A stretch of 64,000 bases of DNA, from NCBI GenBank assembly GCA_001662655.1, contig KV460225.1; one strand, 5' to 3'. A model generated the notes under the pieces. It made no database searches, was not told the DNA's origin, and saw nothing but the letters and a program-made list of their open reading frames with translations. The DNA comes from Pseudogymnoascus verrucosus. Its lineage: Eukaryota. Made by a program: the position numbers and the translations under genes. This document shows, piece by piece, positions 4,028 to 45,282 of the stretch (its first letter is position 1; each line of letters opens with the position of its first letter).

Positions 4028-5144
4028 TATCTAGCTAGTATAGTATGCCCTCACAGATCATCTTCCTGCTTTCTTGTACTTGTGTAATCGTCTTATCCAA
4101 CTTCTCGCAAATAGAGCTGAACGGATTAACTTTCCGCCCAAGTGCGGATGACACCAATCCAAAGTTGCGGGGGAGTATTTACTAACCTAACTTTCTGTTT
4201 CTACCCAAGTAGAAACTTCCGGGATGGTGATGTGCCCGGCTGGAACGGCTCTTCGACGCCTCGCCCACTCCTGACATCAACCATAAGCACATTTAGTATG
4301 GACACCAGTGAATATAGGCATGGTATAGCAATATAATACTAAAAGCCTTCAACTATTACGGCATAGGCCGGACTACTCTAACTATGCCCTACCGGGGTAA
4401 TCAAGTGCGGCTCCAATCCACCAGACATCTGGCCACTGTCGAGAAAGCTGCATCTGAATTTAACAACACTAGCTGTTCCATTATTTCTTTGCTACCAAGG
4501 GGTCTAGAAGCTCGCTAAGGAAATACTATTGGCATAGTACAGGTTCGCATCAGTTAGTTACCTAAAGTCCCCAGCCTCACATATATTCTCCGTATATGGT
4601 GAGCTTGCCCTGCAGATGAAGACCAAGCTAGAGGCTCATTCCAACAGTGACCGGACCATAAGCTTATTTGGGGTTGCCACCGAAGTTTCTATGGAATCCA
4701 ACATGCCATGGCCAGAATGGAGCATGAGAATGAGCTAGGATGCGGAGGCCGAGAAAAATGATAGTGGAGATTGATGGGAGGTCTTGGTCATACCGCAGGC
4801 CGTTGCCTAATATGGACGAGATAAATATAGCTGACATGGCTCACAGCTCCTGTTCTAACAGCTCTGCCCACGCTATAACGCATGAGGCGCAATAAGTCCT
4901 ATGACTTTACGGAGATACGTATTTGGCTATGGTAGCAGCGGGATTACTCTGCTCGAGTGGTATTAGATAAATAAAAATACAACGACGTTAAAACTTGTAT
5001 AGAATGTAATACATTTTTAAGCCCAGAAGCTTTAGAAAGAAGCCCAGCCCCATGACCAATGTGACCCCAAGTTACAAACCCGTTACTAATCGATGGGCCA
5101 ACTAAACCAATACAAAAACGCACGAATAGACTTACAGCACCTAT

Positions 5145-7314
5145 TTACTCGCCCTCGGCGTCATGGCCATCCACTGCACCCTCCCTTGCCTTTCGCCACT
5201 CCCGCCGCCGCACGCCTGTCGAAGAGCCTTGATAGACCCCGAGCGGGTGCTGTGCAGCGAGTGCGCCGAAATCGGCTGCAGTTAGAGTGGGATAGTAGGC
5301 ACCGAGAGCATATACGTCCGTGTAGAGAAGTCGAGGCGGGATCTTGAAGGTGGTTGGGCCGGGTGGAGGCGTCGTAGGAGCGTCGTCCGTGCTGTGAGGG
5401 GTAGCGTTGGCAGAGGCTTTTTTAACGGGGGGAGGTGGTGTAGCTGTAGAGGCGGAAACTGCGATGAGATAGGGTTGCGAATCGCCTGTACCCTTAGCTG
5501 TAGGTGGAAGCAGGAATCTGGATACTGCGTCTGGGGTTGCCACAATGCAGAGCTGGTTTGAAACCGTCGGGGATGATGGTATGTTGGCATTGAAGTGTCT
5601 GCATCTGTTAGCCTCATCGACTCGTATAATAAAACCGCAAACATACCGTTGCACGCCCTCCAAATCGCCTTCAGCAATAAATGCTGCCTGCCCATCGACC
5701 CAGTGCAGCGTTGCTTTCTTCTTCATACCCTCTGCACCAACAACACCCTCCCAACCGAGCTCCACACCCTTCTCTACCTTTCCCAGAAACTCCGCCCACT
5801 TATCATCACTCTCCTCATACGACACCCTATACGCCACAAACCCAAACCCCTCCACCTCATCCCTCCCCAACTCCCTAACCCACCCCTCCGCCTCCAACAC
5901 CAACGGCGCCTCAAACTGCGGCTGCAAATGCTTATGCCCAAACTCCCGATGCGTGATCGTCATCGGCGCCTTCATAAAGCCCGGCACTTTCGTCTCTGCC
6001 TCATACGCCCTCTTGTGCTCCTTCACCGCCGCCTTCAAAACAGATCGCATATCAGCCACGCGTTTCCTCTCTATGCCTGCATAAATACCATTGAGCCGTT
6101 TCGGCGAGGTCTCGGGTTTGTCACCGTTAACTAGGCGTCTGTCAACGCCGTGGGCGAAAACGAAGCCGTCGGTGCGGCCGTGGATGGCGATGTCGGCGTC
6201 GATGTAAAGGTCGAGGAGGGTGTTAAGGATGAGCATGGCGTGGTGGTCGATGCGGACTGTGGTCTGTGTCTCGTTGATAGAGTGTCCCGACTGCAACACT
6301 TCCAGGAAGTGCGTCTTCCATAAAGTGTGGAGCTTTAGGAGTCGTCCAAATACCCAGGCGCGAGCTTGACTCTCCATAAACTCAAAGTGGTTACTGCATC
6401 TCCTTAGCTCTGCTCGACTTCATACATCAGCGCGGGGAACTTACTGCATATACTCCCTCCACAGCTTGCTCAAACTCCATTCCGGTCCGCTTTCCCCCTT
6501 CTCCTCACACATCGCATTAACAGCATCTTGAAATACGTCCCACTCAGCCCAAATCCGATTATACCCATCCCTCAGCCTCCCCTGCACATCCGGGCCCCTT
6601 AAATAATCAAAAACATCAACAACCTGTCTGATAATCGCAATTGCCTCCTCAATATTCTCCCTATCATCCAGGTTCCTCTCCCGCCACTCCACATCCGTCA
6701 CAGGCGCAATGCCAAACCAGACCTATATCCATCAATCAGCTCCCACCCCACCACCCACGCCACACCACCCCATTCCAAAAAAAAAACAGCAATCTCAGAA
6801 ACAACTCACCTTCGCCTTAACAACCCTAAAACTCCTCTCCACCTCCCTCCCCACCACCCCCCTCACAATATCATCCATCCCACTCATCACGTGCGCAACC
6901 CTAATCATAACCGGCGGTGACACTCCCACTCCCGGAAACCCAGGCACCAGCGCCGGCGCAGGCAGCTCCGAAAACGGTTTCGGCGCCCACTCCGCATACG
7001 GCCTTGCGAGTCTCGCGAGCTCGGGTGCTGGGAAGAGAGGGAGGGTGGAGTGGGCGCCGTGGGGGAGGCGCCCGGAGCTGGCGAAGCGGAGGAAGAGGTT
7101 GAGGGTTGGGAGCTCGAGGTCGGTTGGTATTACTGGGGGGTGTTAAAAAAAGGGGGGGGGGGGGATTGGACGTACAAACGCGGTCTTCGGCGTCTTCGGG
7201 GCTGATGACTGGGAGGGAGGGTTGGGCGGGGCCTGCCCAGAGGCCTATGAGGATGAGGGTGGAGAAGATGACGACGATGGTGGTAGCCAGGATGGCTAGT
7301 ATTTTGAGGAACAT
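5145..7314 (-). CDS. Multi-exon hypothetical protein with N-terminal hydrophobic anchor
   Basis: Collinear minus-strand ORFs (6901-7314, 6441-6701, 5145-6377) with intron-like gaps; starts MFLKILAILATTIVVIFSTLILIGLW. Exon boundaries not fully resolved. Confidence 0.6.
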
Positions 7315-7609
7315 TGTGGATTGAGGGGGGGGGTTTGAGGTTTCTCACATTTGCAAAAAATATAAATAGTTGGTGACCTTAGCGTCGTCGTTCCTTGTAA
7401 ATGAAGATCTTGGAAACAAGCGCGCGTTTTTCGACGAGTCGGCTGGGCTGCCATGATTGGTTCACGTTCCCCCTTGATAATATGGGCGAGACGACAGGCC
7501 AAGTTTAGAAAAAATGCAGATTACGGAATTACAAAAACGTAGAAAGCAAAATAAAAACTTGGAAATGTCGTTGAATTTTATAAAATTCAACAAAAAAAAT
7601 ATATATAAC

Positions 7610-7614
7610 AAAAA
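7610..7614 (-). terminator. Pol III T-run terminator of the 5S gene
   Basis: TTTTT directly follows the 5S 3' end (...GTTGTATGT); a further T8 run lies at 7592-7599. Confidence 0.75.
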
Positions 7615-7714
7615 ACATACAACAGTGGGTATTCGCTGGTGGTCACCCACCTAACTACTAATCCACCGACCTCAAGCTTGTGTATGGCAGAGCGGACGGG
7701 ATGCCCAATTCTCT
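7615..7714 (-). rRNA. 5S rRNA gene, 3' fragment (nt 20-119), interrupted by insertion
   Basis: Minus strand reads AGAGAATTGGGCATCCCGTCCGCTCTGCCATACACAAGCTTGAGGTCGGTGGATTAGTAGTTAGGTGGGTGACCACCAGCGAATACCCACTGTTGTATGT, a typical filamentous-ascomycete 5S sequence. Confidence 0.95.
7700..7714 (+). repeat. Left direct repeat GATGCCCAATTCTCT (5S nt 20-34)
   Basis: Identical to 12204-12218; the bases either side mismatch. Confidence 0.95.
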
Positions 7715-8019
7715 GTGAGCTGCCATCGCTTTTGCGCCAAGACCACCACCAAAACCGTTCCCTGTTGTCAGCCTTCCGCTCCTGACCTGACGCCATTGCT
7801 GCTTTTACCTGCACGCACTGCCTCACGACCCGCACTTCTCTAATTATAGCAGCCATTGCATCGTCCTGAGAGCGCTTACGAAATGCAAAATCGTTGGCAG
7901 CCTACAAACATTTGGCAAACACCTTCCAGCTCAACACATCTCTTAGTAAAAGGCAGCCTCCAACACCTTTTCAGTTCCGAAGAGTCGTCTACACTACTAT
8001 ATAGCGATTTAACTGCAGA

Positions 8020-9836
8020 ATGCGTCTTGTTCATACTACAACTCTCAAACTCCACGAATTCCCACCCAAAGGTATCCCACCTTACGCTATCCTTTCTCAC
8101 ACATGGGGCTGCGACGAAGTGACTTTCCAGGACATGATGAATTCTTGCCCCCCTTCTACGAAACTAGGCTATAACAAAATTATCTGTTGCTCTGAGCAAG
8201 CGAGAGGGGCTGGACTAGAATATGTATGGATCGATACTTGTTGTATTGACAAGAAGAGCAGCGTCGAGTTGTCCGAAGCGATCAACTCAATGTTTCAGTG
8301 GTATCGACAAGCGGCTGTCTGTTACGTTTACCTGAATGATATGCACATAACAACCCCGGCATTTGAAGTGTATTCACAGCTACTGGGAAGTAGGTGGTTT
8401 AAAAGGGGATGGACACTCCAGGAGCTTATTGCCTCGGATCTAAGAGTGGTCTTCAGTTCAACGTGGGTTAAGATCGGGTTATCGTCAAAAGAACGACTTG
8501 AATTACCCAAATTTCGCATAAAAGAGAGCTTTTATGCTCAAATCCCCGATATTACCCAGCACCTATGTCATATAACAGGAATTCCTATCGACATACTCCA
8601 GGGCGATAGTTTGGAACAAACTAGCATTGCCCAAAGAATGTCTTGGGCCGCATATAGGGAGACAACCAGAGTAGAGGATGAGGCTTACTGCCTTCTAGGC
8701 ATCTTCGATGTAAATATGCCGTTGCTCTACGGAGAAGGAAGGAGGGCGTTCCTAAGATTACAAGAGGAGATCCTGAAAAGTAGTGATGATCAGTCGATTC
8801 TTGCACACATATCGCCTACTCTAGAAGCTCCGGTTGGATTGCTAGCACAGTCACCCGCGTTTTTTGCGCTGGCTGGGGATATCGGAAAGTCCGATAGAAG
8901 CTGGACAACTTCGGAAGATGCTGTAGCTCTGACAAAACAAGGGCTGAAGATTTATTCAACAATTTGTCCCCTTTCTAGCGGCTCTGCGTGCCTTGCTATT
9001 CTGGACTGTACAGTTGGTAGATCATCAGTCGCGAGGCCTGCAATCTATTTAGAGCGCCAGGAAGGTTCCAAAGACTGCTACCAGCGCTATAGTCACCGAT
9101 TCTTACTAATATTATCTCCTCAACGCCCCGGGTTAGGGTGTCACATGATATGGCGACCAACGATGCTTGATATATCAATTAATGCGTTGCTTGGTAAGTT
9201 GTCTGCATTTCAAAATCATTTTTCCTTTAGTAAGACTAATGGTTATACCTAGAGCAAATAAACTTCGATCAGGCATACAAAAAGACGATACATATTCCAT
9301 TTAAGTGTGCGGATAACACTTTAATCAGATTACCAACAGTTCGTGTAGAAGAAATCGATAAACGCCTGGTACTTCTTTCTGTGGAACCGAAAAATAGTTG
9401 GGATCACGATACTAAAACGGTTCAATTGTCTTCTGGTGTTAGGACTTCTGAGGGTACCCAGGCTGTATTTCACATTCAAGACAAAGGATCTGGCCTTAAT
9501 TTAGATCTTTTGGTCGGATTCGACCCTAAAGAATTTGATGAGGAAAAATCTCGTATTTGGGCTGCATGGTGTCTCTTGATTCCATTAGGAGCTGACAGAA
9601 TTTCTCACAGACAGCCAAAATCTACAAATACGCTGTCTGAGGCACGAAAGAATAACATATGCAGTGATAGTCTTAGTCTTAGACAGACGAAGGCACAGCA
9701 GAGTGTTGTCGACTTAGGTTGCAGTTTTCAATATCTAGTCCAAGCTTCTATTGAAGCGATTAAGTTTCTTGGACGTCAAGAGGTTATTTTGCAGGTGCGG
9801 CTATTATCAAAACCCAAACCTCAAGAGACTTGTTAA
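8020..9836 (+). CDS. HET-domain (heterokaryon incompatibility) protein, ~585 aa, no NACHT/WD40
   Basis: PYAILSHTWG, YVWIDTCCIDKKSSVELSEAINSMFQWY, SRWFKRGWTLQEL and SIAQRMSWAAYRETTRVEDEAYCLLGIFDVNMPLLYGEG. Intron 9194-9252 (GTAAGT..CTAAT..TAG) joins in frame to the 9381-9836 ORF. Confidence 0.92.
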
Positions 9837-10095
9837 AGGAAGAAAGTCAGGCAAAGGCGAAATTTATATTTAAACGAAATATTAATTGATTAACAACCAA
9901 AGATAGAGTTCGATAATTAAGATTTCTACGGGCCTAGTTGATAATTATTTGTTCATTGAAATGTCTACCAATAGTGAAATCCCTGCCTTCTCGAACGTTT
10001 CGTCATTTGGATATAACGCAAAATCGTACAATGTGAAAATTGAAAGGAGAATGTTAGACTTGAAAGATTTCAATAGACAATTGTTGATACGGCCA

Positions 10096-11834
10096 TTACT
10101 CTTTGCATGTTTCGCGTGGCCTCGTCAACCCTATCTTGTGAAACTCGAATTGATGATCCACATACCCAGCTTCATCTTGAAACGCAGGTTTACCAGTACA
10201 TTCGGCTGCTTCACATACAAGGTTGCGCTTACGATGTAGTAGATCAGGGTGCCTAGCAAACAAATGAAGCATAGTTTCCATGAAATTTCCTGTTGGCTCT
10301 GAGCAATATGAACAATTTTCACCGTCTTGACTAAGAAGCCTGTAGATAATGGTGAGTTGTAATTTATACGAATGGTGAGGCATAAACGTACGTATCGTAA
10401 GGTAGTTCCCACACCGTTCCTGGCTCGAAATGGGATTTTAAAATCTCAGTCATTTTGCTACTCGACCTGTCTATATGTTAATGGCAACGAAATAGAGTCT
10501 TTTGATAATATCAAAACTTACAGCGACAATTGGCATTGTTCGTCGTCTTTCCCTTGCCAAGGCAAAAGGCATTGGCACTCGTCTAATTTAGGCATCCTTT
10601 TAGAGACTTTCTCATCTAGGTCATATATACTTCTTGCTATTGTAAACGCTGATGGGCGCAAACAAGGATCAGGTTGGACCATAGCCTGACAAGAAGGAAT
10701 GAATTGTTGGAGAAATGCTGACTGCAAGCACTCCTGATGTTCGGTGAGCTGCTCGATAGCCCTAGTGAAATTAGGGGCTTGTAGCCGTTGGGATACCCCG
10801 TTGAGACTCTGTCTGAGAGTGTCCAAAGATAAGCCCGCTGCAACTGTCATTATCTCAAGATATACACATCCGAGAGAGAATACATCTGTTTTGACACTTG
10901 AAATTTGCCCTAAAATGATTTCAGGAGCCAGGTAGATATAAGGTTTGACCTCTCCTCCATCCGAGGTTTCTTGTACTAGCATACTTGACTCTTTAAAGTA
11001 GTTTGAAATGGCGAATTCTGTGAAGAAAACATCACCATTCTTGACTCCAATACTTGCAGACCTGATATCCTTGTGTAATAGACCTTTCGCGTGGATATAG
11101 CTCAGCCCACTTGCAAGGCAGCCGAGCCATTTTTGCGCAATAGGAAGTGGCTCGAAAGGGGTCGGTTTTGTGCTATTAACTCGCTCAAGGAAGACCTGAA
11201 GTGTGCAATTTGCGATCGGGCTCATTATAATTCCATAGCGTAGGTTTTGAAGGTTAAAACTCTCCTCTTCATATGTCATAATTGCTGTTATAACATGGGG
11301 ATGATGAAGGGATTTTGCGGAATCAAGGCGCTCAAGTTCGGCAGATGATGTGCCCCTGGTTGGTTGACGGGCTAAGGTGAATACCTTTCGCGCGTAACTT
11401 CTGCCTGGAAGAATCTTTCCACCAGATGGTTCCACCTTGTCGACTATTGAGAAATTTCCCAACCCCAGATCTTCCATGTGATTAAACCGAACACGTCCAC
11501 ACGGAAAGAATTCATGAGTACAGACCACTGCTAATGTCTGATCATTGACTTTTTGGGCGTACGACTCCTCTGTATGCTGAGGGAATACAAGTTTTAGGCC
11601 GAATCTTTCCCCCTCACTTTCGTTCAGATATTGATAAGTTCGATGATCTTTAATATCGTGGGGAGCCTCTTTAGAGGTGGCTAAAGTGCTAGAGCTAGCC
11701 TGATCGTCAGACGTGATCTGCGTTGTACGTGGGCGTTTACGGGAACCCCGCTCTGGCATATCGCTCTGGTGATGCAGTTTAGGAGGTTGAGAGGACGGCT
11801 TGCAAGCGCTTGAATGTGCATTATCATGGTCCAT
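10096..11834 (-). CDS. Protein-kinase-fold protein (probable pseudokinase) with two C-terminal C2H2 zinc fingers, ~543 aa
   Basis: LGLGNFSIV, YARK, HKDIRSAS, EFA, YLAPE, DVFSLG, RPSA. Predicted exons 11834-10522, 10466-10392 and 10339-10096 (55- and 52-nt GT-AG introns) give an open frame ending in CSYC-x12-HLFARH and CEAAEC-x14-HQFEFH. Confidence 0.8.
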
Positions 11835-12203
11835 GTCTGTAGCAAAGCGGTAAATAAAGCAAATAAAGCTCGTGGTTGAGACTCGATGTTGAGGCAAGGC
11901 TTTAGGCAGCCACGGATCATGTAGTGGGCATTTAACCTTATATATCAGGCACACATTTAGATACATATCTATCCCTTTTACGCCTGCATATTGTGCTACA
12001 GTACTTGTATGTATTGCAAAGCGCAAGCTTATACATCTTCCTGTTTTGCGACAGCCGTGTACGTTTGGCCGTTTTGCGTAGTAATGTTGTTAGATAAAAG
12101 CAGCATTGGCCTTAGAACAACTCACGCGATACTGCAACTCATTATCATGTTTCCATCAACAGAAACCTCAAAGTCGTCGCATTCAGCGACCAGCGCCGAC
12201 AGA

Positions 12204-12237
12204 GATGCCCAATTCTCTTGAGTCTATGGTCATATGT
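12204..12237 (-). rRNA. 5S rRNA gene, 5' fragment (nt 1-34); includes right direct repeat 12204-12218
   Basis: Minus strand ACATATGACCATAGACTCAAGAGAATTGGGCATC. It pairs with the 3' fragment in helix I (ACAUAUGAC/GUUGUAUGU) and helix II (GACUCAAG/CUUGAGGUC, one bulge). TATA-like TATTTAG at -30 to -24. Confidence 0.92.
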
Positions 12238-12311
12238 GATTGTTATGTGCATGTCGGGAACTAAATACTAATGTTCTGTGTGTGGAAGTAGATGGTTTGA
12301 GGGCGGCGGTA

Positions 12312-12375
12312 ACATCCCCCTTAAATCGAGATAAAAAACGGCTTGTCCCCCCTCCCCTTGCTTCACCCTCGCGCG
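12312..12375 (-). repeat. Degenerate duplicate of the last 17 codons and stop of the XDH gene
   Basis: ~63-bp near-copy of 12539-12601. Confidence 0.85.
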
Positions 12376-12547
12376 TTGAATTGTATAAAATACATAACTA
12401 AAACACCACAATAGGTTAAGATTTTGCACTTAAACATACACACACATATAATTCTCACCCCCGAAACAAATCAAATCCAAAATTCATAATCCATAAAATT
12501 TTATATACAAAAAACCCCCCTCAACGATTCCACCATTTACATCCCTC

Positions 12548-15500
12548 TTAAATCGAGATAAAGAACGGCTTATCCCCCTCCCCTTGCTTGACCCTCGCGC
12601 GCTGCACAATAGGATCCACACATGCGTTCCTGATCCGCTCCGTTGTCGCGGGGCTGTCAAGGTATAACATGCCATCTTCCATCTCTGCCGATGCTTCTTG
12701 TCCTTGTGGTTGTAATGCATCGGCGGCAGGAACGTCCTCTGGGGTGGTGGTCGTCGTATCATCCGAAACGCTACTTGGCTCACTAGTCACCGGCGACTCA
12801 TCGCTCTCTCTGCTCGTGGTGTCGCCATTGCTTGCCTCACCATTCGTCGCCTCTCCATTCTCGGCATGACCGTTAGTCGCTTCACCATTCGTCGTCTCCC
12901 CAACCTCCCCATTCCCCAACCCCTTTGCCACAAACCTCCTCGCCTCAACCCCCCACTGCCTCCTCCCCGCCCGAATCGCATCCCTAATCGCAAAGAACAC
13001 CACACTGCCCAAAAACAGCGGCGGCTCCCCAACCCCCCTACTCCTCCCAATAGTCCTCAACTCCTTCCACTCCACCCCCTTCAGCAAACTAACATTAAAC
13101 GTCTGCGGCACGTCCCTAAAGCCCGGGATCTTGTAATTCCCCGGCCCGCGGGTGGCGAGCTGCCCTGCCATGGGGCCGCCGCCGAACCACAGCGACTCTT
13201 CCATCGTGAACAAGCCGACACCTTGGACGAAGGCTCCCTCAACCTGCCCGTAATCAACAGAGGGATTAATACTACGTCCAACATCCATCAGCACATCTGC
13301 ACGAATACACGTCCACGAGCCGGTAAGCGTATCGACCTCAACCTCAGCAGCAGCAACACCCTGCGTGAAGTAGAAGAACATCTTCCCCTCGTTCTTGCCC
13401 CACGTATACCCTATCTCAGGAGTACGGTAGTACCCCTGCGCGGACAGGTTGACGCGGGAGAAGTACGCGGCATGTGCGAGCTGAGCCATAGTGGCCTCGG
13501 GACCGAGCTGGGTCTTGAAAGGGGCGAGACGCTCGTTGAGCTGCGCACAGGCGTTGTAGATGGCGTAGCCGTTGAGATCGCTGGATGCGCTGGCGGCTGT
13601 GGAGGAGGTGTTGGCGACGGTGTTGGTGCCGGTTTCCGAGATATGCACGGAATCCAAGGGGACGCCGAGGGTCTCAGCAGCGACCATGCACATCTTGGTG
13701 TGCAGCCCCTGACCCATCTCAGTACCACCGTGGGCAAGCAGCACGGAACCATCGTGGTAGATGTGCACAAGCGCACCAGCCTGGTTAAGGAACAGCGCGG
13801 TGAAGGAGATACCGAACTTAGTCGGCACGATAGCAAGACCACGCTTACGCCACTTGTGAGTTTTGTTGAACTCATCGACAGCCAGACGGCGCTCCTCGTA
13901 CTTGGAGTTCTTGCGAACCTGGTCATACATAAGGGGTACATGCCAGTCCTGCAGCGCCTGGTTGAAGTGCGTGATCTCCATAGGCTTGTACATGTTGATC
14001 TCCCGCAGCCTCTCAGCTGGGATACCGAGCCTGTCTGCTGCCTCTTCAATGTACGTCTCTGCAACGAAAAGACCCTGGGGTCCACCAAAGCCACGGAAAG
14101 CGGAGTTGGACATAGTGTTAGTGCGCGCGATACGGCCACGTACGTGTACATTCGGGATGGCATAGCAACCATCAATATGGGAGAGAGCGCGTTCACAGAC
14201 AGCTCCACTGAGATCCTGCGTCCAGCCACCGTTGCAGACAACCTCCGCGTCGAGGGCCTGAAGCTTGCCATCGCTGTTGATGGCGATCTTCCACTTCGTG
14301 AGGAAGGGATGGCGCTGGCCACTGGTCATCATGTCTTCGTCGCGGTTAAGCATGCAGCGCACAGGCCGTCCCGTCTTCTTCGCAGCGAGCGCCATGATAG
14401 AACTCAGTTGCACCGAACGGGTTTCCTTGCCCCCAAAGCCGCCACCAAGACGCTTGACTCGGCAGACGACCTTGTTGTTGGCGACATTGCAGACCTGTGC
14501 GACATATGCTTGCCTGTTCTCGTTAGTACTGAGATATATCTCATAAAAATGGATTACTTACGTCTCTGTCGGGTTCTGCGTACAAGCAAAAACCTCCATC
14601 TCGCCATCTTCCGGCTTCGGTATAGCGACACAGGCATTAGTCTCAAGGTAGAAATGCTCCTGACCTCCCATCCTCGTCGTGCCAGAGATGACATGATCCG
14701 CCTCCGCAAACGCCTTCTCCGTGTCCCCAGTCTTGATGAACCTGAACTGCTCGAAGTAGCTCTCCTTCTCAATAGCCTCTTCGATAGTATAGATAGCAGG
14801 CAGCTCTTCATACTGTATCTTGACTGCCCTCGCACCAGCAGCAGCCTCGTTTGCCGTACTGGCGAGGATAACACCAATAGGCTGACCACAGGTAAAGACC
14901 TCATTTACAGCGAAGAACACCTCATCTCTCACCGGTGCACCCCACCAGTTCGCCTCGGGGCTGGGCATATCCGTATGATCCAGATAGTCCACCACACCAG
15001 GCAACTCCAAAGCCGCCGACGTATCAACAGATATGAGTTTCGCCCGCGCCTTCGTCGAAAGGACCAGACACCCGTACAACTCATTCCTCTGGACCGGGAT
15101 ATCATCAGTATACTGCGCCTGCCCCGTACACTGCTTCAGCGCAGCAACATGCGGCTGCGCGCGACCCATAATCATCTTCTCATACGCAGCCGTAGCATCG
15201 TGATCCTGCTCACCACGCGAAATCTCACGCTCAATCTCACCAACGGCCTCAAGATCCGCACCATCGTTGCCGAGCTTGATGAGCACCTCGTGGTAGAAGC
15301 GGTAGAAGAAGCTCATTGCGAGGGTCTTGCGGTAGGTCGCCATTCCACCTGGAACGCCGAACTTGAGATCAAAGTCCTGCTCGAGGGCGCCCATGACGCC
15401 TTCAAGCGTTGCCGGATCTGTCCACTTCTTGCCAATGAGGAAAGTGTCCGCCTTCTTCGCTGAGATGGTGAGAGGCGCCATTCCGCCGTAGACGAGGTTG

Positions 15501-16995
15501 GCGCTCTCAACTTCGTGGGTCTCGCTGAGTTTGACTCGGAGGGCAGCAGTGACGATAGCAATATCATCATCCTTCCTCTTCGCCTGCTTATACGCACTGG
15601 TATACTCGTTCGTCGCCGTGACAGGAATCCGAAGACTAGCGATGATCGCGCCCGCCGGGAGCGCAGTGGTACGATATGACTTGAAGAACTCCGTCATCGG
15701 GATCTCCGTATCCTCTTCTAGAGTTTTCGCAACCAAGGTAGCATTCGCAGCAACAAGCACAGGGTTCAGATCACTGATCGGACTCGCCGTCGCCAGATTA
15801 CCCGCCGGCGTCCCAACATTCCTAATCTGCCTTCCGGCGAAGAACTGCAGCTGCCTGTGCATATTCGTAAACACCTGTCCCTTCTCAGGTCCATAATGCT
15901 CAACAGCCTTCAGCGCAATGGCTTCCAGGTCCGTCAGCGTGATGTTGCCGCCAATCTCTAGATGATCGTCATGGAACTCAAACTTTCGCAGTTCCGGGAT
16001 ATCTCCAACGAACACCGAGGCCGAGTACTGCATAGCCTTGAACTTAATCTCAATCTGCGTCTCACTGCTACCTCCAATAATCTTGGCGGACGGCAGCGCA
16101 TGCTTGATGCGCAGGAGTTGGTCCACAGTGACGGGGCGGTACCAGCGCTTCCGCTTATTACCGAACGTCAACGGCTTGAACTCGTACTTGGTGAGGGCGG
16201 GCGGGAAGATGAGTTGGGTGTCGGGGTTATACTCGATGAACCCAGGCGGCGTGAAGCGCTTGATCGGCTGGTCGTCGTCGGCGGGCTTGCTCTGACAGCA
16301 TCCACCACCTCCCTCCTTCTCCATGCAGCATCCGCCACCGCCGTTGGTCTTGGCCTTTGCACATCCAGTCTCGGCGCTGAATGTACGCGCCGCTTCCAGG
16401 ATAGGCCTGTACCCCGTGCAGCGGCACAGGTTGCCGTCAAATGCTTCCTCGATGGAATGCTCAGTAGGTTGATCTTCATTCCGTAGCAGCGCATATAGAC
16501 TCATCACAATACCAGGAGTACAGAACTGTGATACCGTTAGCAACGCCCCCATATATCTCTCACACCAGGAAAGGAGAAACTTACCCCGCATTGACTCCCA
16601 TTCCCCTTCGCAATGCGCTCTTGCACAGCATGCGGCCTCTCAACATTTCCAATCCCCTCCACCGTAATAACATGCTTGCCATCCACACTCACAAGCGGCG
16701 CCAGACACGCATTAACGCTGGCATGGTATATCTTCTTCGTCGTAGGATTCCACTGACTAACAACGACAGTGCACGCGCCACATCCGCCCTCCGAACATCC
16801 CAGCTTGGTGCCGGTGAGTCCAATGCCACGGAGATACTCGAGCAGGGTGATTTCAGGGTCGATGTTGTCGAGATTGACGCGGGTGCCGTTCAGGAAGAAG
16901 CGGAGGGTTGTGTCGTAGAAAGCGGTCACGTCGGCGAGGTTTGTGGATGCCTCGGCGGGGGCGGCGGGGGTGGGAGAGACGGCACTGGGCGCCAT
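12548..16995 (-). CDS. hxA: Xanthine dehydrogenase (molybdo-flavoenzyme)
   Basis: 2Fe-2S motifs [18 protein letters not shown] and [12 protein letters not shown] domain; Moco motifs [16 protein letters not shown] and GVGEPP. Exons 16995-16585, 16525-14562 and 14513-12548. Confidence 0.96.
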
Positions 16996-17620: not shown

Positions 17621-18619
17621 TCAGTCCCCAGTCTCACGCATTTTGTTCGTAACCTTTTCCAGCACCATACGGCCGAGGCTGACGTGAGCTGTCTGTTCCC
17701 CCCAAGGGATATCTCGCTGCTCTTCATCCCTGAACGTTGTATTCGCGAACCATGCATCTCGGAGATATTCTTCCCGCTCCTGCGGATCCTTGCCGATATC
17801 TGCCACTTTCCCCGCATACTTAATAGTCATAGCGTTGAGGAGCAGACGACACACTCGGCCGTTGCCATCCTCGAAGGGATGGATACACACAAACGCCGTG
17901 GAAAGCCGGCAAGCAAAGTCGATAGCGTTGATTTCCCCGGTCTTCTCCGCTGTCTTTATTCGCTCGTTGTGTTCCCCAACGAGGTTTCTCATAAAGAGCT
18001 TCACGGATTTGCCGCGGACGAATTTCGAGGAGAAGAGCGGGACTTGCTTCCTCTGGGGGACAGGTCGGTTCGGTTTTAGCCGCTTGCAGTCTTGGACTCG
18101 TTTTTTGTATTCTTCGTCTGTTTCAAGGCGGAGTCCATGGCTTGCTCCCTCGTCCGACTCTCTGTAGGTGCCTCCTGACGCTTGGTGTTCCGAAAAGCGC
18201 ATGAGGATCCGATGTGTCTCCTTTATGATATCTTCGTCGAGAGGGACATCTTGTAGCACGATCGTGTCAAAGAGGTGCTTTGCAGCTAGTGCATGCTGGA
18301 CAATCTCGTGTCTTGAGCGCATGACAGATTGTAAGTCCGTTGCCCGACCGCTTGAAGAAAGGTGATCAAGCTCGAGTGTGTATTCGTCAGATCCCTCGTC
18401 AATGTCTTCGATGTTTGGTATCTTGCCGCTGAAAACTTGGCGACAAAACCGATCTGTAACTCCGATGGCCCCTCCTACCACCTCGATTGCATTGCTCCCA
18501 AATATTACATCGCTGAGTCTGGAGATAATAGTGTCTGACAGTTTCCTGGGTGCTGTTGGGCCGCTTTCTTGGCTCAGTTTCTGGCAGGGTCGTGTCTGCC
18601 TGTTCGCTGCCGATGCCAT
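17621..18619 (-). CDS. Fic/Doc-domain protein (putative AMPylase)
   Basis: Complete Fic motif HPFEDGNGRVCR, upstream I.E.H..LM...GG.YR segment; intronless 332 aa. Confidence 0.9.
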   Translation of the reverse strand: MASAANRQTRPCQKLSQESGPTAPRKLSDTIISRLSDVIFGSNAIEVVGGAIGVTDRFCRQVFSGKIPNIEDIDEGSDEYTLELDHLSSSGRATDLQSVMRSRHEIVQHALAAKHLFDTIVLQDVPLDEDIIKETHRILMRFSEHQASGGTYRESDEGASHGLRLETDEEYKKRVQDCKRLKPNRPVPQRKQVPLFSSKFVRGKSVKLFMRNLVGEHNERIKTAEKTGEINAIDFACRLSTAFVCIHPFEDGNGRVCRLLLNAMTIKYAGKVADIGKDPQEREEYLRDAWFANTTFRDEEQRDIPWGEQTAHVSLGRMVLEKVTNKMRETGD

Positions 18620-20866
18620 CTTTTCAGCTTTACAGTAACTGTTTATAAAACCGGGAATGTATCCTGTTGGTGTTACATGGAAAGATGGGTGACTGTAAAA
18701 CTTATAATAATCTCTGGTTATTGTGAGTTTATTGGAAGTTCAGTAAACGCTAGTAACTGTTCATTCGACAAGAAGTACGAAATAAGGTACTAATAATCCC
18801 CTGATTTTTAACTTACGATAAGCTAAATTCCATACTATAATTCATCCCATACTAAATTACACACTAAATATATAAAAATATAAAACTGGAAGGAGCGAGT
18901 TGTATATATATACTATGACCTATACTATGACCATTATGAAGCAAGGGAAGGAGCCATCCTAGAGTCAATGCACCTGCCAAGTCTCTCATCAATTACAACG
19001 CCTTGGCCAAACTTGGTCGCTAGCGTAAATGTTTTCGAGATCGATTCCCCTCCCGAGCCTACTGTCGGAGAGTAACTCTTCTCATCGCTTTGAGTCTTAC
19101 TTACCGGGAGAACTTACCGGGAGAACTTACCGGGAGATCATCGTCTGCTGGGATCATAGCATCTACACGTGATTTGTCGTATTTGAGATACTCGTATCAC
19201 GTGATTCACCGCCCCACAAATCGGGCATCCATCCCGCATCCCACACCTGTCCCACTTCCACCACCCACTTTTGTGCCCACATAACACGCCTGCGATTGTC
19301 AGCAATTCTGCCACTACGCACATGCTAAATGCAGACACACTCGTGGTCCTAGCCGTGGATGCTATCTTATCTTCACAGATAGCTAGAGAGTAGGGAAGAT
19401 AGAGTCCGTATGCGTATATACGCATGCAGTGGGTAGTATTTATATAGTATTTATTCTCTTCCGGTTAAGATGCTCCCGGATTACTCTGTAGAAATGAAGA
19501 TGAAGATATACTCTGTATATATTCTATGGTGCAATCGGCGTGAAAAAATACGATTGTGGCAAACTGAAACTGGACGCACGCGACCACTATCCACTTGCGG
19601 TGCTCGTGGGGTGCTGGTGGGGTGCTGGTTGCGCCGTAGCTAAGGTTAGGACGGTTAGTTCCGGTGAGCAAGGTAAGGTTAGTACGGGTAAGTAAAGTCT
19701 TCCATGTATAGTAGTATAGTAGTGAAAAGCCGATGTGAAAAGCCAATGTTTTGTTGGAACTACTGTAAACTATAGTAGTATGCTGTAGTATGTTGTAGTA
19801 TGGTTATAGTACGGAGTAGTTGACTATAGTAGCATAGCAGTTACGCACAGGGCGCGCGTTTATCTGCCCACGTTGTTGCATACGGCACTCTCGTAGGGCA
19901 ATAGATCGGCCTCGGCCACAGACTGCATGTCAGTCCTGCCTTACAATGGTACTAGTAGCGAGTCTAGCAGGGAATCTAGTAGGGAATCTAGTAGGGAATC
20001 TAGTAGATTCAGTCTAGTAGTGAGTCTAGTAGTACGCTACAGCAGTGACGCCTTACTTATGTGGAGTTATGGAGACAACAGGCAGGAACAGGGAGGGAAA
20101 ACGGGAGACAATATGGAGACGGTTTACGAGTCCGACGCTACGCTACTGCCATACTCTACTACGGAGTACACTCTGTCTCCCCGACTCTATGTTACCTCCA
20201 TACTCTACTCTACCGATAAGCGGAGGAGGCAGAATGGTTATGCGGGCGGGTGATGGCGATAGTGGCCCGTCCTCCGCCGGAAGAATATGGTGGGCGCCGA
20301 CGGCCAAAAAACGTGACAGGCCGTGCACGTGAATTTACCCAGGGTGTATTTCGTCTTGTGTCGTCATCATGATTCTACAGCACGCTACACCACAGCACAG
20401 CCACCAATATAAACAAATCCGGTCTCTCTACAGTACCTATAGCATCTAAAACACACACATAAAATTAAATCCAGCTATCCAACTACTACCTACCCCTCCT
20501 TGCAAAGCCGAAAATGAAAACATAAAAAACTAAAATCCGATATTGTTCGTTGGGTTGGTTCCTTATCGTCCAACAGCCACGCCGAGATTCTCCCACCCCA
20601 CTACCCAAAACATCTTAGCCTTGTTTGGCGTAGATTAGCCGATCAAGGGTCAAGGGCGCAAGGATCAACTAACAAGGGTCTCCACCCCCAGCCGCCGACG
20701 CAAGTCCTCCACCCGCAGTATCTCTCCCCGACGCCGGCAAACTCCCAATCGAATAACTTCAGCATCCTCTATTTCTCTCTCCTTTTACCTTCTTCTTCCT
20801 CCTCCGTCCTAATTTTACTGCTCGACCACCACCACAACCACTGCTGCTTCTACTACAGCTGCATCA

Positions 20867-37788: not shown

Positions 37789-38802
37789 GCACCTCGAACA
37801 ATCTTTGGGGCCGTATAGACTGTTCCAAGGTTCCGCGGATTCCCGGCCACAGCCTGTTATAGTTGCCAAACTAGGAATTATACATGTCCTTCAAAAGTAC
37901 TGTGTAGTTTCGCCGAGTAGGAAAAGGCTTATTTATTCGGACACCCCGATGATATTTATGAGTCAGATTATCAACTCGGGGTTATCATCCCCGAAAATAT
38001 CGTCATCCGCTCGGTGTAGCTTGCTGAGCCACCGACCGACCTGTCCCTTATGAAATCAGCATGTTGCTCTTAACCAGTAGAGGGTGATTACTTGCAAGAG
38101 ACCATTTGTTGCAAGTCCAGATTTCGGTTACAGAGTGAAGTGTGACCTACCAGTTAACTATTATGATCAATCTATTTTCTATACACAAAATGCTGGCATA
38201 GACTTATTCTTCGGCCAGGAATATCTGGCGTCAGTTTAGACTCGATTTCAGACAAAGAACTACAGATACTTAACACAACGGTGAAATGATGTCGTGCGAC
38301 CCCCATCTACAGCTCATGCGCCGATAAGGTATTCCACGCGAGTTGAATGCTGCCATCTTCTGACTGAGTTAAACCTAGCGTGAGTGTAACTAGCCATGCA
38401 CCATGCATTGTGACACGGAACGTTGCTCAGCTGAAGGCTCAGCTGAGTATCTATCCTAAGACACTGAGTCTATGTTTCCAGTCCGGATCTCACACGTGGG
38501 GCATAACACCGTTGGAATTCTTCAGCTCGGAAGCGACCGTAAGACATTTTTGCACCTCCTTTCGCCGTTGAACTATGTAAGATCTAGCTTGCAAATATGC
38601 ACATCGTATAAGTTACAAGCTCGAGCTCAGGTCATTGTTGAATCCATTTCAACCCAACTCGTAACCTAGTTGCCTCCCTAGCTGAGATAGTCGTCTTGTC
38701 AGAACTTTGAATTGTCTATGGTAGGACACTGCGCAGTGTCGACTGTGTGCTGTCTGTATAACTATACGGGGCTCCGCCCTCGGTGCGATCCAACGAAACG
38801 CA

Positions 38803-40350
38803 ATGTTGGACTTAGAATCCGACACCCAAGTTGATCAGACGCGTAAGCAGGTATCGTCGCGGTCAAAGCTTCGCGACAGCTGCCATGCCTGTGCCATTTC
38901 CAAGGTTAAATGTCCCAAAGAAAAACCATCATGTTCAAAATGCGAATGCCGTGGCATCACATGCCAGTACTTCTTGGCTAAACGTCCTGGTCGCAGGCGT
39001 GAGAACAACACAGTCAACGGCACAGGGAGCAACACAAGTCGATGCCAGTCCAGCAAAAGTCTTGCAACAAGCTCCAACTCCAGCTCCAGCTCCAATTCCA
39101 ACTCTAACCCCAATACCAAATCCAATACCGACAGCAGCCGGTCTATGGAGTGGGAGGCACCTCTAGATATGCAACCCACTCCCGGAACCGGCTTGCTATC
39201 AAAAGGAGGCACAATAATTCCAACCAATTCGTATGGCACCGATGGCTACCTTATGACACCTTTAAGCCTAAGCGTCCCGGCATCTCCAAGACAAGACAAT
39301 ATGTTTTCAACAAATGCAGCACAATTTTCTGTACCTGGCGAGGTCGGCATGTTCTCTGGTCTAGTAGATTTTGGATCTGAGGTCAACGACATGGATTTCA
39401 TCATGTCGGCCATGGATTCTCCGTTTGACCTGCTTGGAATGGAGTGCGGTGGCATCACTGGTAGCATCACGCAAACACCAAATGATATTGAGTCGCTCCT
39501 CATGCCAACCGAGAGAGTCGATTTTGACCATGCTTCATTGGATACGCCATCCTCACTTGATTTATTGAGCACATCGAGCGCGGCGTCATCAACCGCCTCC
39601 AATATCCATTCGCTGCCGACTGGGATGACGAGTATATCGGATATCATCGAAACCTCACCGTGTGGATGTCTGATGCAAGCACTAGATCTCTTGAAGAAGC
39701 TTTCCACTAGCTCAACCTCTTCCCGCACGGCATTTCCCAGTCTGGATGCCACGGACATGCCAAGAACTGTTAATGCTAGTTCAGCGCAGACTGTCGTCTT
39801 CGAAAATAAGCAAGGCATGGAAGCTGTCAGTAGCAAGCTTGCATGCTCGTCGTGCGTTGACGATGGCTTCTTGCTAACAGTCATCTCCATGATCGTGCTG
39901 AAAATATTAGAACGATATGCCACTGTGGCGCAGGCACAGCCGCGCAAGACTGGAAAAAGCGAGCCGGAAACTGACAATCCAGTGAGGCTATCGATCAGCA
40001 CTACTTCTGGTAGCGATGACTGGATGAGAGCGCCAAATCATGTCCTTAATGGATCGTATGACGACGGAGGAAGCGAGCGCGTGGCCGCTCAGCTTGTTCT
40101 CAGCGAGCTGCATCGCGTGCAGAGGTTAGTGAACCAGCTGTCACCGAAACTCAAAGGGCCAAAGGAGAGAGAAGGTCAAAATATAGCCCCGAAGATGAGG
40201 TACTGGGGCCGTCCTAGGGCTGCAGGAGATGGTGACAGAATGACGTTGACTTCTATCTTGGCTGGCACCTTGGACCAAATGGAGAGGGATGTTCGCAAAA
40301 GCTTGAGTACTCTGTCAGCAGAGATAATCAACGGGCTACGGCAAGTTTAA
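38803..40350 (+). CDS. AflR/MdpE-like Zn2Cys6 cluster regulator
   Basis: KLRDSCHACAISKVKCPKEKPSCSKCECRGITCQY; AflR-type C-terminus AAQLVLSELHRVQRLV. Confidence 0.9.
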   Translation: MLDLESDTQVDQTRKQVSSRSKLRDSCHACAISKVKCPKEKPSCSKCECRGITCQYFLAKRPGRRRENNTVNGTGSNTSRCQSSKSLATSSNSSSSSNSNSNPNTKSNTDSSRSMEWEAPLDMQPTPGTGLLSKGGTIIPTNSYGTDGYLMTPLSLSVPASPRQDNMFSTNAAQFSVPGEVGMFSGLVDFGSEVNDMDFIMSAMDSPFDLLGMECGGITGSITQTPNDIESLLMPTERVDFDHASLDTPSSLDLLSTSSAASSTASNIHSLPTGMTSISDIIETSPCGCLMQALDLLKKLSTSSTSSRTAFPSLDATDMPRTVNASSAQTVVFENKQGMEAVSSKLACSSCVDDGFLLTVISMIVLKILERYATVAQAQPRKTGKSEPETDNPVRLSISTTSGSDDWMRAPNHVLNGSYDDGGSERVAAQLVLSELHRVQRLVNQLSPKLKGPKEREGQNIAPKMRYWGRPRAAGDGDRMTLTSILAGTLDQMERDVRKSLSTLSAEIINGLRQV

Positions 40351-41822
40351 ATTAGTACGTGCCGGACATATGATGGTTATTTGGATTGAAACCCCGTACA
40401 TTCTCCACCTAAGGGGTGAGTCAATAGACAGACTCAAGGTGGAGCTACAGAAACGGGCATAGTATATAGCTTAATAGACATTTGGCATTATAATTCTAAA
40501 CTATAGGTCTACAGCCAAAACTCCCCTATACGCATTCTATCTATCAATATGCTATTCCAAGTTATTATACCCGCCAAACAAATTATATGCCTGAAGTTCA
40601 CGTGGACGTAAGCACGACATACTTCACAGGCATATGATTCCATTTAAGAGGATATGCTCATAATGTGGCTTGGTGGCTTGGCGGGAACTGCCATGGCTCC
40701 AACCCGACCTTCTATAAAATGGAGTGCCATACGAGCATGGCAATCTTACCGCTGGTCACAAGAAACGGGCCAGTAGTAAGTGGTCAGGTGGCTATGTGCT
40801 ATCTGTATTGAGTCTTGACAAGGTAGCATCAGCCAAATGCTTCTGCCATGCCATCGTCGGCGATCACTTCTACATCCGGGATACGACTGTTGAATACGCT
40901 ATATTTGTGGAGCTATACGAGGCGATGGATGAGGTGGGTAAGACACAGTGTTCTAGTTCGTTGGTGGATATTTATTATTCTAGAACGGCCTTCCTTATCA
41001 GTGTACCATTTTAAAGGAGGGTGTCACAGCAGTTGCTGAAATTCAATCGCTGTTGTACAACAGTGGCAAACTTTCGGTATTCAGAGGCACACTCGCACCT
41101 GCTTACGTAGATTACGTGTCTCGTAACAAACTTCCCAGGGATTTTCTTATTTAAAGATAATAAGTATAATTCAATTTGATTCTCACGGTTGAAATCAGCG
41201 TGCTCGGCGCTAATTAGGACATCTAGCAACCCCTTGAAGCTGACGACTACCTCACCGACCCTGACGAATTCCCCAACCCAGCATATCGTCATCCTAGCCC
41301 AAATTAACACAATCCATTCGGACCATCGGAAAACAGATAACTAACATGCTTCAACTCGTGTCAGCAAAATTCTTGCCCCCACCGACTAAATGTTCCTTGT
41401 ACCACGGGCCATGTTTCATACGGTTGAAATCTTCAATACTTTGGAATGCCGCCTAGCTGAAATAGTCAAAGTCTGCAGTATCGGCCATCTGATGATCAAA
41501 TAGTTGGTTCATCAAATTACGAGTGTTGCTTTAATTACCAATCTAAATACTATACTAACTAAAAGGCAAGAGTAGGTGTGCTACTTGGGAAGAAAACAAT
41601 GAGTGGTTGCATGCTAGGAAAAACTCGCTGAACTGGGTCTAAGTCTTTACACCATACTTTACCATAAAGCCCCGAAGGGCAATTAGCACCCAAGCCGCAT
41701 GTAATACGTCAGGAGCCCAGAAGCATTATATGTTAACAATTTTGAACTTACGATATATATGGCGTCAATTCGCGGTAGAAGAAAAGTTCTCGGCTGGTGT
41801 TTTAAACCTCCAATAAAACACC

Positions 41823-42390
41823 ATGCGCACCTAACTTGATACTAAACCATTACCAGTAAGGGTCGACGTGCCAGCCATAGCTGTTATTTTGGGGTCCTTT
41901 CTATCAGGTTATGTCAATCTCCTCTATACGCAATCTGGACCTTGTCTAACTATTAGACTCAGGCGCTATGACGAGCCTTTCGGCATTTGCCGTCCCTGTA
42001 TTTATAGATACTAACACCGAATAATTGCTCCGGCAATGGATTCAGCCCTACCGTTACGGCCACATGTACATACCCACATTTCGTATTGTGACGTTGGGGC
42101 TATGCGTATGCATCCTTAAGCGGAAGAGGCTCGAGCCACAAGCAATGGTACCAATATGGCGTGGCAGCCACATTGTCAATTTCTATGGTGCCATTCACCT
42201 AGCTTGCCGTGGCGGAAACGAATCATACCTTATTCCAGATGGGGTCGAGAAATTTGGCGACAGAGCTAACCTTTGCGAAAGCTCTAGTTTTGAAGTGAGC
42301 GTGGTTGCATGTTATGCAGTCTCTGTTTCCCATATTCGGAGCAATCACAGGCTTCGTCAGCCTTCTGCAGGAAATACGGTAGCAACGTGA
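41823..42390 (+). pseudogene. Anthrone oxygenase (DUF1772, EncC/MdpH-type) pseudogene
   Basis: AVILGSFLSG|AMTSLSAFAVPVFIDT..LLRQW...Y.YGH...MVPFT*L remains recognisable. It has a TAA at 42022, a TAG where W is expected (~42200) and a frameshift near 42100. Confidence 0.75.
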
Positions 42391-43250
42391 CAATTATACC
42401 GTCGAGTCTTCGTATATTCAATAGCCCGTATAGTTAGCATAGTGGCAATTCAGTATGTTTCGTTATCATTTGGGGCCCGTAAATCAATCCACCTCCACTA
42501 GCTCCGACTATCCAAGTGCTGTAAAACTCGCCGGAAGAATCTTACATGTAAACAGAGCAGGTAATCACAACTAATGTGTATATTGGCGTAATATATTCCA
42601 ATACGATAAGACGGATTCGGCGTAAAAAGGCTGACCTGCTGGAACGGGGGATTGGAAGTTGCCGTGGTGGTATTGATTATTGACCCGGCATTACACCGTT
42701 AATTCCCCACTATTTAAAGTGTCACGAAGGCGCCGCTAGCTCCGGGAGATCGTACCGCTAAGCCTTTAAAAAGCCTTCGGTTGTACTGTACTAGTTAAGC
42801 TACGGTAGGGTACTACGCGGTTGAAAGCAATAAGTGGCACGGGTCTTGGCACATTTCTGGTATATTTCTGGCAGTAAACCGTGCCACTTTTTTCTTCACC
42901 CGCGTAGGTACGTACTAGACCTGTTGAAGAACGAAGATGAGACCTTTCTTGTTGTTTGGCGCGATGATCCCCCGTAGACCACAGCCACCGCCACTGCCTT
43001 ATCTAGCTCGGAAGGTAACCCCAGTTGATGGGCGATAAAATATTGGTATGATACGTTATTTAGCCAAGCCGCCAGGTAACAACGGGAAATATCCGTTATT
43101 GTGCGTCCCGGGGCGTTCTGCAACCCCACCGGTCATTCCAGTTTTCCAAGATTCGTACAATTTGAGGGAATGTAGTCCCTATCTCTACCGTGGCCCTCGG
43201 ACGCAGGATTTTGTCTCCTTTGATTTATACAAAACAATTCTAGCTTTATT

Positions 43251-44721: not shown

Positions 44722-45282
44722 TTTCGGGCTATTTGAGTGCATAGTTACTTAGATGGGCATAAAATGACATGGAGCACAGGGAACCGCAGTGGTAGCTTAT
44801 TAAGATTCGTTTTAATTCAAGTGACAATTAATCCAATATGAGAACTACATGCACCTCTAGATCTAACCTGTAGTGCGGGCGGCTGTTATCTTTGAAAACT
44901 ATGCAAATCATCGTAATAATAGAGTAGTTCACTAGGCTAGTTCCCAAGTCCACATTTAACTTAGTTCATCTTAACTAGAAAATAAAAATGGACCGCAAGC
45001 AGTTGTTGCCATTGGTCCACAAACCACTCGAGTGAGTAATCCGCGAGGTGCGCGTTCTCCCCGAAGGCAACGTCCCATTGTCCCATTGTTCCATTGTTCC
45101 GAACTTGCTATAGTTTAGAACCTACTATGGGTTGGTAGGGGCTACGTATTGTGCGAGTGATAATGTGAAGTTAAGTAAAGAGGCTCCATTTAACTCTATT
45201 GCTTCTCGTAATATTATTTTCTATCGATTCTGCCATGCTATAAATTATCATATGAGTGCTTTAGAATATTGATTTCCATGAT

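Follow-up and report, generated by a model that had tools for sequence, protein, structure and literature searches.

The DNA analysed here, referred to as the window, is a 64,000-nt stretch of contig KV460225.1 of Pseudogymnoascus verrucosus (assembly GCA_001662655.1), and this work concerns a 5S rRNA gene in it that is split by a 4,489-bp insert carrying two genes. The 5' part of the 5S gene (nt 1–34) was located by sequence comparison at 12204..12237 on the minus strand, with a TATTTA box upstream, and its 3' part (nt 20–119) at 7615..7714 on the same strand, where it also matched RF00001. Nucleotides 20–34 are present in both parts and constitute a 15-bp direct repeat, the presumed recombination core, whose left copy occupies 7700..7714 and whose right copy occupies 12204..12218. 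The insert lies between the two copies (7715..12203) and is given here on the plus strand, following the convention used for Starships, the giant fungal elements moved by a captain (a DUF3435 tyrosine recombinase encoded by their first 5' gene); this orientation is taken from the direct repeat (DR) as printed for the Starship Voyager. The two 5S parts, with their strand, order and coordinates, had been proposed in a first-pass annotation made from the sequence alone, and they were borne out when the sequences were compared.

Joining the two parts in silico gave a gene of 119 nt, which folded with -33.4 kcal/mol and a closed helix I. Of the 96 5S matches found in unrelated fungal metagenome loci, 63 aligned with the joined gene over its whole length, the query starting no later than nt 9 and ending no earlier than nt 115. 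Since the joined gene is collinear with intact fungal 5S genes, the split was precise and nothing was lost. The box upstream is found at -30 to -25 of the gene (12267-12262, minus strand), and a T-run terminator follows directly after nt 119 (7614-7610), so that the restored gene, the TATA-like box and the T-run described in the annotation could all be located. A scan of the whole window with Rfam at the gathering threshold gave 0 matches, and a sensitive scan of 7000-13000 scored the 3' part alone, with 38.0 bits, exactly the gathering score of RF00001. The upstream flank of the split gene resembled the flank of the normal 5S copies in related organisms. Nucleotide 6 of the split gene (12232) is a T, and a C in the consensus of the normal copies of these relatives; the change is of the CpG-to-TpG type and turns a G-C pair of helix I into G-U. 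This T is consistent with drift after inactivation of the gene.

The repeat itself, GATGCCCAATTCTCT on the plus strand, was found as an exact 15-mer at 7700-7714 and at 12204-12218, and its spacing of 4,504 bp agrees to the base with the annotation. It was the only pair of exact 15-mer direct repeats within 7400-12500, and it is placed exactly at both break points. When this interval was shuffled by mononucleotides, an exact 15-mer direct repeat of any kind arose in 9 of 500 shuffles.

The composition of the insert is foreign: its GC content of 0.438 lies below that of the flanks (0.50 and 0.55), and its coding parts range from 0.40 to 0.46, against 0.572 in the adjacent xanthine dehydrogenase gene (XDH). 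No signature of repeat-induced point mutation was detected in the insert, the indices of 0.84 and 1.25 being unremarkable by the usual thresholds. Two terminal regions were distinguished. The left end (LE, 7715..7810, plus strand), of which about 65–78 bp are multicopy in the relatives, as judged from the contig depth at 7779-7792 and from the joints described below, is joined to the 3' part of the 5S gene; the right end (RE, 12014..12203, plus strand), of which about 170–190 bp are multicopy, with 5–10 contigs per genome, is joined to the 5' part. The two ends share a subterminal inverted repeat with arms at 7787-7810 in LE and 12092-12115 in RE (20 matches in 24 positions). Its local score of 28 compares with 13.8 +/- 2.1, and a maximum of 22, in 300 shuffles.

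Two convergent genes occupy the interior. The first, on the plus strand (8020..9836), encodes a HET-domain protein of 585 aa (PF06985, E 1.1e-13) in two exons, 8020-9193 and 9253-9836, which are separated by a 59-nt intron (GTAAGT..TAG); the exons are 100% identical to VE01_10779 of P. verrucosus, also of 585 aa. This gene stands where the captain would be expected in a Starship. The second, on the minus strand (10521..11834), is kinase-like (PF00069, E 5.5e-20), its open reading frame (ORF) being open from 12089 and its first plausible Met lying at 11834. The best relatives of its product in a protein search were 64%, 45% and 43% identical, with none above 64%. In the protein and its five closest relatives, EFA takes the place of the DFG motif that is kept in more distant relatives, the catalytic-loop Asn is lacking, and the Cys motif ECxCLxPWxGK is present at the C-terminus. 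Judged by these residues, the product looks like a conserved pseudokinase. Since the frame past the kinase stop resembles the zinc-finger-like C-terminal extension of P0003, a homologue from Cladophialophora (31% over 111 aa by tblastn), the gene may have a further exon at 10431-10099 on the minus strand. Retrotransposition was rejected, since the intron is present and poly(A) is absent; the earlier view that the insert is not a retrocopy, which rested on the retained intron, the convergent genes and the lack of poly(A), therefore holds.

The occurrence of the insert elsewhere was analysed by aligning Logan contigs of four related organisms (X2–X5, here organisms B–E) with positions 4500-16500 of the window at 80% likeness or more. 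The elements of these relatives are known from this alignment to the window, and the summed contig depth serves as a rough guide and not as a copy number. Position 12141 in RE was covered by 7, 10, 5 and 6 distinct contigs in organisms B, C, D and E, respectively, and at position 7779 in LE the summed depth of the contigs was about 6–9 times that of the flanking contigs. Contigs running out of RE (records 20, 25 and 26) extended from about 12014 across the repeat to cover 5S nt 19-1 and, beyond it, the upstream flank of the 5S gene; those running into LE (records 2 and 3) passed from 5S nt 119-20 through the repeat to 7721 or 7779. The copies of the ends in these relatives were about 80–87% identical to those of the insert. 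The annotation had proposed to look for further 5S genes split at this position. In each of the four relatives, several contigs have homologous ends that abut 5S halves at one and the same nucleotide, which supports its description of a discrete element using 5S genes as docking sites.

These junctions bear directly on the possibility of an assembly artefact, in which 5S sequence in common would have led to the erroneous assembly of two 5S contigs with a 4.5-kb contig unrelated to them. In favour of such an error, the 5S gene is a dispersed repeat. A chimeric join at a 5S gene would, on the other hand, need more than 15 bp in common and would not give complementary halves that sum to exactly one gene, and both types of junction were seen in independent assemblies of the four relatives. 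Together with two observations described below, junctions of joined ends and the loss of homology exactly at the edge of the repeat, the recurrence of the ends makes misassembly very unlikely, and we consider it the least probable of the explanations discussed in this work.

Whole copies of related elements also seem to be present. Two contigs, record 12 of organism C (6,291 bp) and record 27 of organism E (6,329 bp), start 6 and 28 nt, respectively, into the repeat and 5S sequence and then enter RE. Joints from 7762 to 12034 (side 71) and from 7721 to 12034 (side 37), at the same depth, place LE and 23–30 nt of 5S sequence in those same contigs of about 6.3 kb, and organism D has the same kind of LE/RE joint to 12034 (side 30). 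Because about 30 flanking bases are what an assembly from 31-letter words (the word length of the run index) is expected to leave, these contigs can be read as whole elements. They would measure about 6.26–6.27 kb and be bounded by 5S fragments, with the two ends at opposite tips.

Additionally, the ends were found joined to one another. A joint from 12203 back to 7700, that is, RE, repeat and LE in succession (back 4504, with 15 letters fitting both sides, side 55), was present in organism D at a depth of 24.4 (flanking contigs, 21.1) and in organism E at a depth of 32.9 (flanking contigs, 37.2). Variants of the RE/LE joint with a diverged core were found in organism B (12211 to 7734, side 90) and in organism E (12218 to 7738). 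Such junctions are as expected of tandem insertions or of an attP-like joined form.

Organism C provided the closest copy. Its record 10 (2,545 bp) corresponds to window 9703-12218 with 20 differences and no gap, an identity of 99.2%, and the match to the kinase half of the insert stops exactly at the outer edge of the right repeat copy (12218), after which 29 further letters are unlike the window. The orthologous flanks of the same organism (record 9, a contig of 18.8 kb) differ by about 10–11% from those of the window. At this locus, the 5,069 letters of the window (7399-12467) correspond to only 264 in organism C, and both the 5S gene and the insert are absent; its near-identical copy of the kinase half therefore lies elsewhere in its genome. 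Since the kinase half is tenfold less diverged than the surrounding genes, the comparison points to a recent transfer of this half between lineages. Positions 9703-11717 were without contig cover in organisms B, D and E, a gap that is no proof of absence. In organism B, the orthologous locus has an XDH that is 98% identical and has kept the 5' part of the 5S gene; its contig (record 8) ends at 12215, inside the repeat. The annotation had proposed to look at this XDH-linked locus for an empty, intact 5S gene. At the locus of organism C, the insert is missing and the 5S gene is missing as well, so that no intact allele was obtained from it.

A second way in which the arrangement could have arisen is a single event, in which microhomology-mediated repair or ectopic recombination placed foreign DNA in a broken 5S gene and left the repeat as a scar. 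The window holds a single copy of the insert, and 15 bp is within the range of microhomology, both as such an event would have it. Ends joined to 5S sequence at the identical nucleotide nevertheless recur in 5–10 contigs of each of four genomes, the relatives have joined-end junctions, and the copy of organism C ends exactly at the repeat. This combination rules out a one-off repair in practice, and we regard it as very improbable.

The locus shows a further imperfect repeat, of 30 nt, around the 5S unit. One copy lies just 3' of the 5S gene (7569..7598) and its partner 5' of it (12374-12403); they agree at 24 of 30 positions as direct repeats, and the left copy contains a perfect palindrome of 22 nt at 7570-7591. 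The pair encloses the whole 5S unit, that is, the gene with about 136 bp upstream and 16 bp downstream. The 264 letters of the contig of organism C between the aligned flanks are exactly the number that the window would have with 7599-12403 removed, so that the unit with the 5S gene has itself the appearance of a module gained or lost by insertion or deletion.

In organism E, record 28 (6.5 kb) contains the 5S upstream flank of the window and 5S nt 1-34 at about 87% identity (12203-12391), and past nt 34 it continues with 6.2 kb that are unlike the RE of the window. This contig could represent either a paralogous unit of the 5S gene or another element that occupies this 5S position.

Taken together, we propose, with a probability of about 0.6, that the insert is small and captain-less and belongs to, or derives from, a Starship-type tyrosine-recombinase family that integrates in dispersed 5S genes at nt 20–34. 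A system of this type fits the site, the length class of the repeat and the type of cargo. Several families of Starships have 5S rDNA as their target, with DRs (6–16 bp) longer than any others known (PMC11162782); the 15-bp repeat of the insert is within this range. Voyager is reported always to insert 20 bp from the 5' end of the 5S gene (PMC9156397), and in the window the unique 5' fragment comprises nt 1-19 and the repeat begins at nt 20, the published Voyager target position. HET-bearing genes are listed among the conserved cargo of Starships (PMC9156397). The link to 5S-targeting Starships suggested by the annotation is strengthened by these coincidences, the repeat covering the published Voyager site (20 bp from the 5' end, DR GCCCTGTATTCT). 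The insert is not classified as a Starship proper, since its lack of a captain and its size of 4.5 kb fail two of the defining features.

In the mechanism proposed, a captain-type tyrosine recombinase (DUF3435) encoded elsewhere in the genome would recombine the core of the element with its 15-bp counterpart, identical in sequence, in a 5S gene. Before integration, the core would lie between the joined ends, in the order RE, repeat, LE; integration would leave one copy of the core at each junction and split the 5S gene. The conserved ends would act in cis, with about 65–100 bp on the left and about 170–190 bp on the right, each bearing one arm of the subterminal inverted repeat at about 75–110 bp from its tip, and the cargo would be the HET-domain and pseudokinase-like genes, of the allorecognition or cell-death type often carried by Starships. 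We infer both the class of the enzyme and its action in trans; mobilisation of the insert in this way, also put forward in the annotation, is plausible, and either the short form itself would have moved or it would be an internally reduced copy.

The last point leads to another explanation, in which the insert is an immobile wreck: a large Starship in this 5S gene would have lost its captain and most of its cargo by internal deletion, and the short form would never have moved. Degraded Starships without DUF3435 have been described (PMC9156397), only one copy of the 4.5-kb form is known, and organism C shares the kinase half, with the HET half lacking cover, as if copies differed by deletion or by exchange of cargo. 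Against such decay, both genes are intact and promoter-sized spacers directly abut the conserved ends, no debris of a captain pseudogene was detected at E<=1, and at least three relatives seem to hold elements of about 6.3 kb with the same ends. These putative elements favour small size as a trait of the family, and we consider the wreck unlikely.

It is also conceivable, if rather improbable, that the insert belongs to a different kind of mobile element, a small autonomous family with a Crypton-like or undescribed enzyme that came to the same 5S position independently; the copies of about 6.3 kb would then be autonomous and the insert a version with exchanged cargo. The sizes known for Cryptons fit the range of 4.5–6.3 kb. 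This range suits them better than it does Starships, with a survey minimum of 15 kb, and the tips of the insert are without inverted repeats. Targeting of 5S arose at least five times among Starships according to the 2024 survey (PMC11162782), which makes convergence plausible. Yet no such enzyme was seen and nothing links the ends to any other family, and the site, the length class of the DR and the HET cargo all match published 5S-targeting Starships. Moreover, captains are related to Crypton recombinases, the captain tree being rooted on CryptonF in the legend of the survey (PMC11162782), so that the mechanism would be much the same. Neither a Helitron nor a DDE cut-and-paste element that makes a 15-bp duplication was retained as an explanation, as the tips are without repeats and one and the same 5S sequence recurs as the repeat every time.

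Several observations weigh against the proposed captain-less Starship-type element. No recombinase or transposase was detected at E<=1 in the 19 ORFs of the insert, 2 large ones and 17 small ones of at least 60 aa, which gave HET and Pkinase only; the statement of the annotation that there is no mobility gene is thereby confirmed. DUF3435 was absent from the 49 ORFs scanned among the 107 of at least 120 aa in the window. In the alignment to the window, the contigs of the relatives gave no sign of an autonomous element that shares these ends. No inverted repeats were found at the very tips, with 5–10 matches per 30 positions at every offset tried, the likeness of RE to 5S beyond the 15-bp core is marginal (9 of 12 matches, equalled in 75 of 2,000 shuffles), and that of LE is absent. 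In the contigs of the four relatives, neither a second copy of the exact 4.5-kb form nor, at the XDH-linked locus, an empty site with an intact 5S gene was seen, and the HET half (8109-9703) was without contig cover in all four, although a gap in cover is no proof of absence. The Voyager family is presumably the one numbered fam10. There is no fam10 member among the 8 recombinases tabulated for P. verrucosus in the 2024 survey, and thus no captain of the Voyager family, by this numbering, is tabulated for the host of the insert, a Leotiomycete. The insert, with 4,489 bp and two genes, is less than one third of the smallest Starship of that survey, in which sizes range from 15 to 511 kb with a minimum of 15,020 bp (PMC11162782). 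Finally, a scan of metagenomes for the junction of 5S, repeat and LE, with a query made of a 22-nt 5S stretch followed by 'not T', returned 73 loci, and among these no homologue of LE or RE, and no further member of the family, was found.

A more far-reaching proposal, which we put forward tentatively and at somewhat less than even odds, is that natural mini-Starships exist. They would form a Pseudogymnoascus family of 4.5–6.3 kb, with ends of about 0.1–0.2 kb and one or two allorecognition-type genes (HET and pseudokinase). Resident captains would mobilise them in trans, with an attP-like joined form as the intermediate, and the elements would dock at the Voyager site in redundant 5S genes and would cross species (99.2% identity against about 90%). 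If this proposal is true, the minimal cis requirements of Starship transposition would be defined: a natural family of 4.5–6.3 kb with intact boundaries would narrow the sequence recognised by the captain to about 100–200 bp per end. Such a family would also show captain-less passengers in nature, as for bacterial integrative elements, and would constitute a compact and testable vehicle by which single genes could be carried from one fungal species to another. The presence of HET and conserved pseudokinase cargo hints that small elements may spread incompatibility or addiction-like functions. Starships are known as giants, and the cut-down form mobilised in trans has so far been an engineered one (PMC10104507); no report of natural captain-less, miniature or non-autonomous Starships was found in the literature. 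In the literature found, one review only tied Pseudogymnoascus to Starships, and no 5S insertions in this genus were found. The finding adds a genus for which the survey rows listed give 8–33 captain genes per genome, with 8 Starship-type recombinase genes in P. verrucosus and 11–33 in other Pseudogymnoascus, and 0 delimited elements in each case (PMC11162782).

The metagenome loci provided a view of 5S genes in another fungus. Nearly all of the 73 loci were intact 5S genes of a fungus that has a C at the position queried; its 5S differs from that of the window at nt 17-19 and is identical over nt 20-41. The loci came mostly from two metagenome sets with contigs of up to 220 kb and many dispersed intact 5S genes, and these two sets hold, in effect, fungal genomes. 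No HET or kinase homologue was found in the metagenome 5S loci. Apparent breaks at nt 20 were rejected as element junctions, being contig ends or, in locus L040, a diverged pseudogene.

A second class of truncated 5S copies was observed, both in these loci and in the relatives. Its members follow the gene from nt 1 to about nt 61 (window 7673); they then diverge, the sequences past the break being loosely similar. There were 14–16 such contigs in each of organisms B, D and E and 6 in organism C (at 7674), and about a dozen fragments of nt 1-60 in the metagenome loci, among them L006, L007, L023, L036, L058 and L062. In filamentous ascomycetes such as Aspergillus nidulans, 5' half 5S pseudogenes consist of a 5' fragment of the 5S gene followed by a conserved unrelated block and occur in several copies per genome, and the class described here presumably resembles them. 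It might mark the target of another element. The 5' half pseudogenes break at about nt 60 and the 5S gene of the window at nt 34; unlike them, the latter has a matching 3' fragment and an intervening element. As a speculation, the truncated 5S pseudogenes of ascomycetes could be insertion scars of mini-Starships.

Other features were recorded in the window. A Fic/DOC-domain ORF (17624-18739, minus strand) adjoins XDH. A non-reducing polyketide synthase cluster extends over 38725-58000 and comprises an AflR-like Zn2Cys6 regulator (38725-40347), a metallo-beta-lactamase-type gene (45286-46239) and a SAT-KS-AT-ACP synthase (47066-52689), together with two arylamine N-acetyltransferase ORF pieces, an NmrA-like gene and a FAD-binding oxidase.

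Among known systems, Voyager of Macrophomina phaseolina (Gluck-Thaler et al., 2022, PMC9156397) is the nearest to the insert. In both, the site lies inside a dispersed 5S gene, 20 bp from its 5' end, and the 5S copy is fragmented. The curated Voyager DR, GCCCTGTATTCT (PMC11162782, Table S1), overlaps the homologous 5S stretch of GATGCCCAATTCTCT; the comparison draws on Table S1 and the text of that survey, the strings having been compared by eye. The orientation relative to the 5S gene is, as judged from the printed DR, the same in both, with the captain side corresponding to the left end in the window, and HET-type cargo is common to the two. By contrast, Voyager measures about 77–91 kb and has a DUF3435 captain at its 5' end, where the 4.5-kb insert has the HET gene and no recombinase, and terminal inverted repeats are annotated in Voyager, whereas the insert has a subterminal inverted repeat only. 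The captain that defines Starships, a DUF3435 tyrosine recombinase as the first 5' gene, is thus missing, and so is the feature that defines Cryptons, a tyrosine recombinase encoded by the element itself in a unit of 3–6 kb.

The degraded Starships described as 'Derelict' and degraded Voyager resemble the insert in the reading of a Starship-derived, captain-less element (PMC9156397). They are defined by at least three conserved Starship genes and the absence of DUF3435, a definition of which clean boundaries are no part (PMC9156397), and the insert differs from them in being compact, with both boundaries and both copies of the repeat intact. The engineered miniHephaestus is the counterpart for the mechanism proposed here, a cut-down element with few genes that is excised by a captain acting in trans (Urquhart et al., 2023, PMC10104507). 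It is man-made, its target is TTAC(N7)A and not 5S, and the element flanks that it retains measure 3.8 kb and 1.9 kb (PMC10104507). Compared with these flanks, the insert, if mobile, would need only about 0.1–0.2 kb per end.

Bacterial integrative elements in tRNA genes offer the most general parallel. They are integrated by a tyrosine recombinase at a short identical core of a redundant small-RNA gene, form tandem arrays and include captain-less passengers that use a resident integrase. The analogy is one to prokaryotic systems, and the bacterial elements usually restore the RNA gene in which they reside, whereas the insert of P. verrucosus destroys the 5S copy that it occupies.

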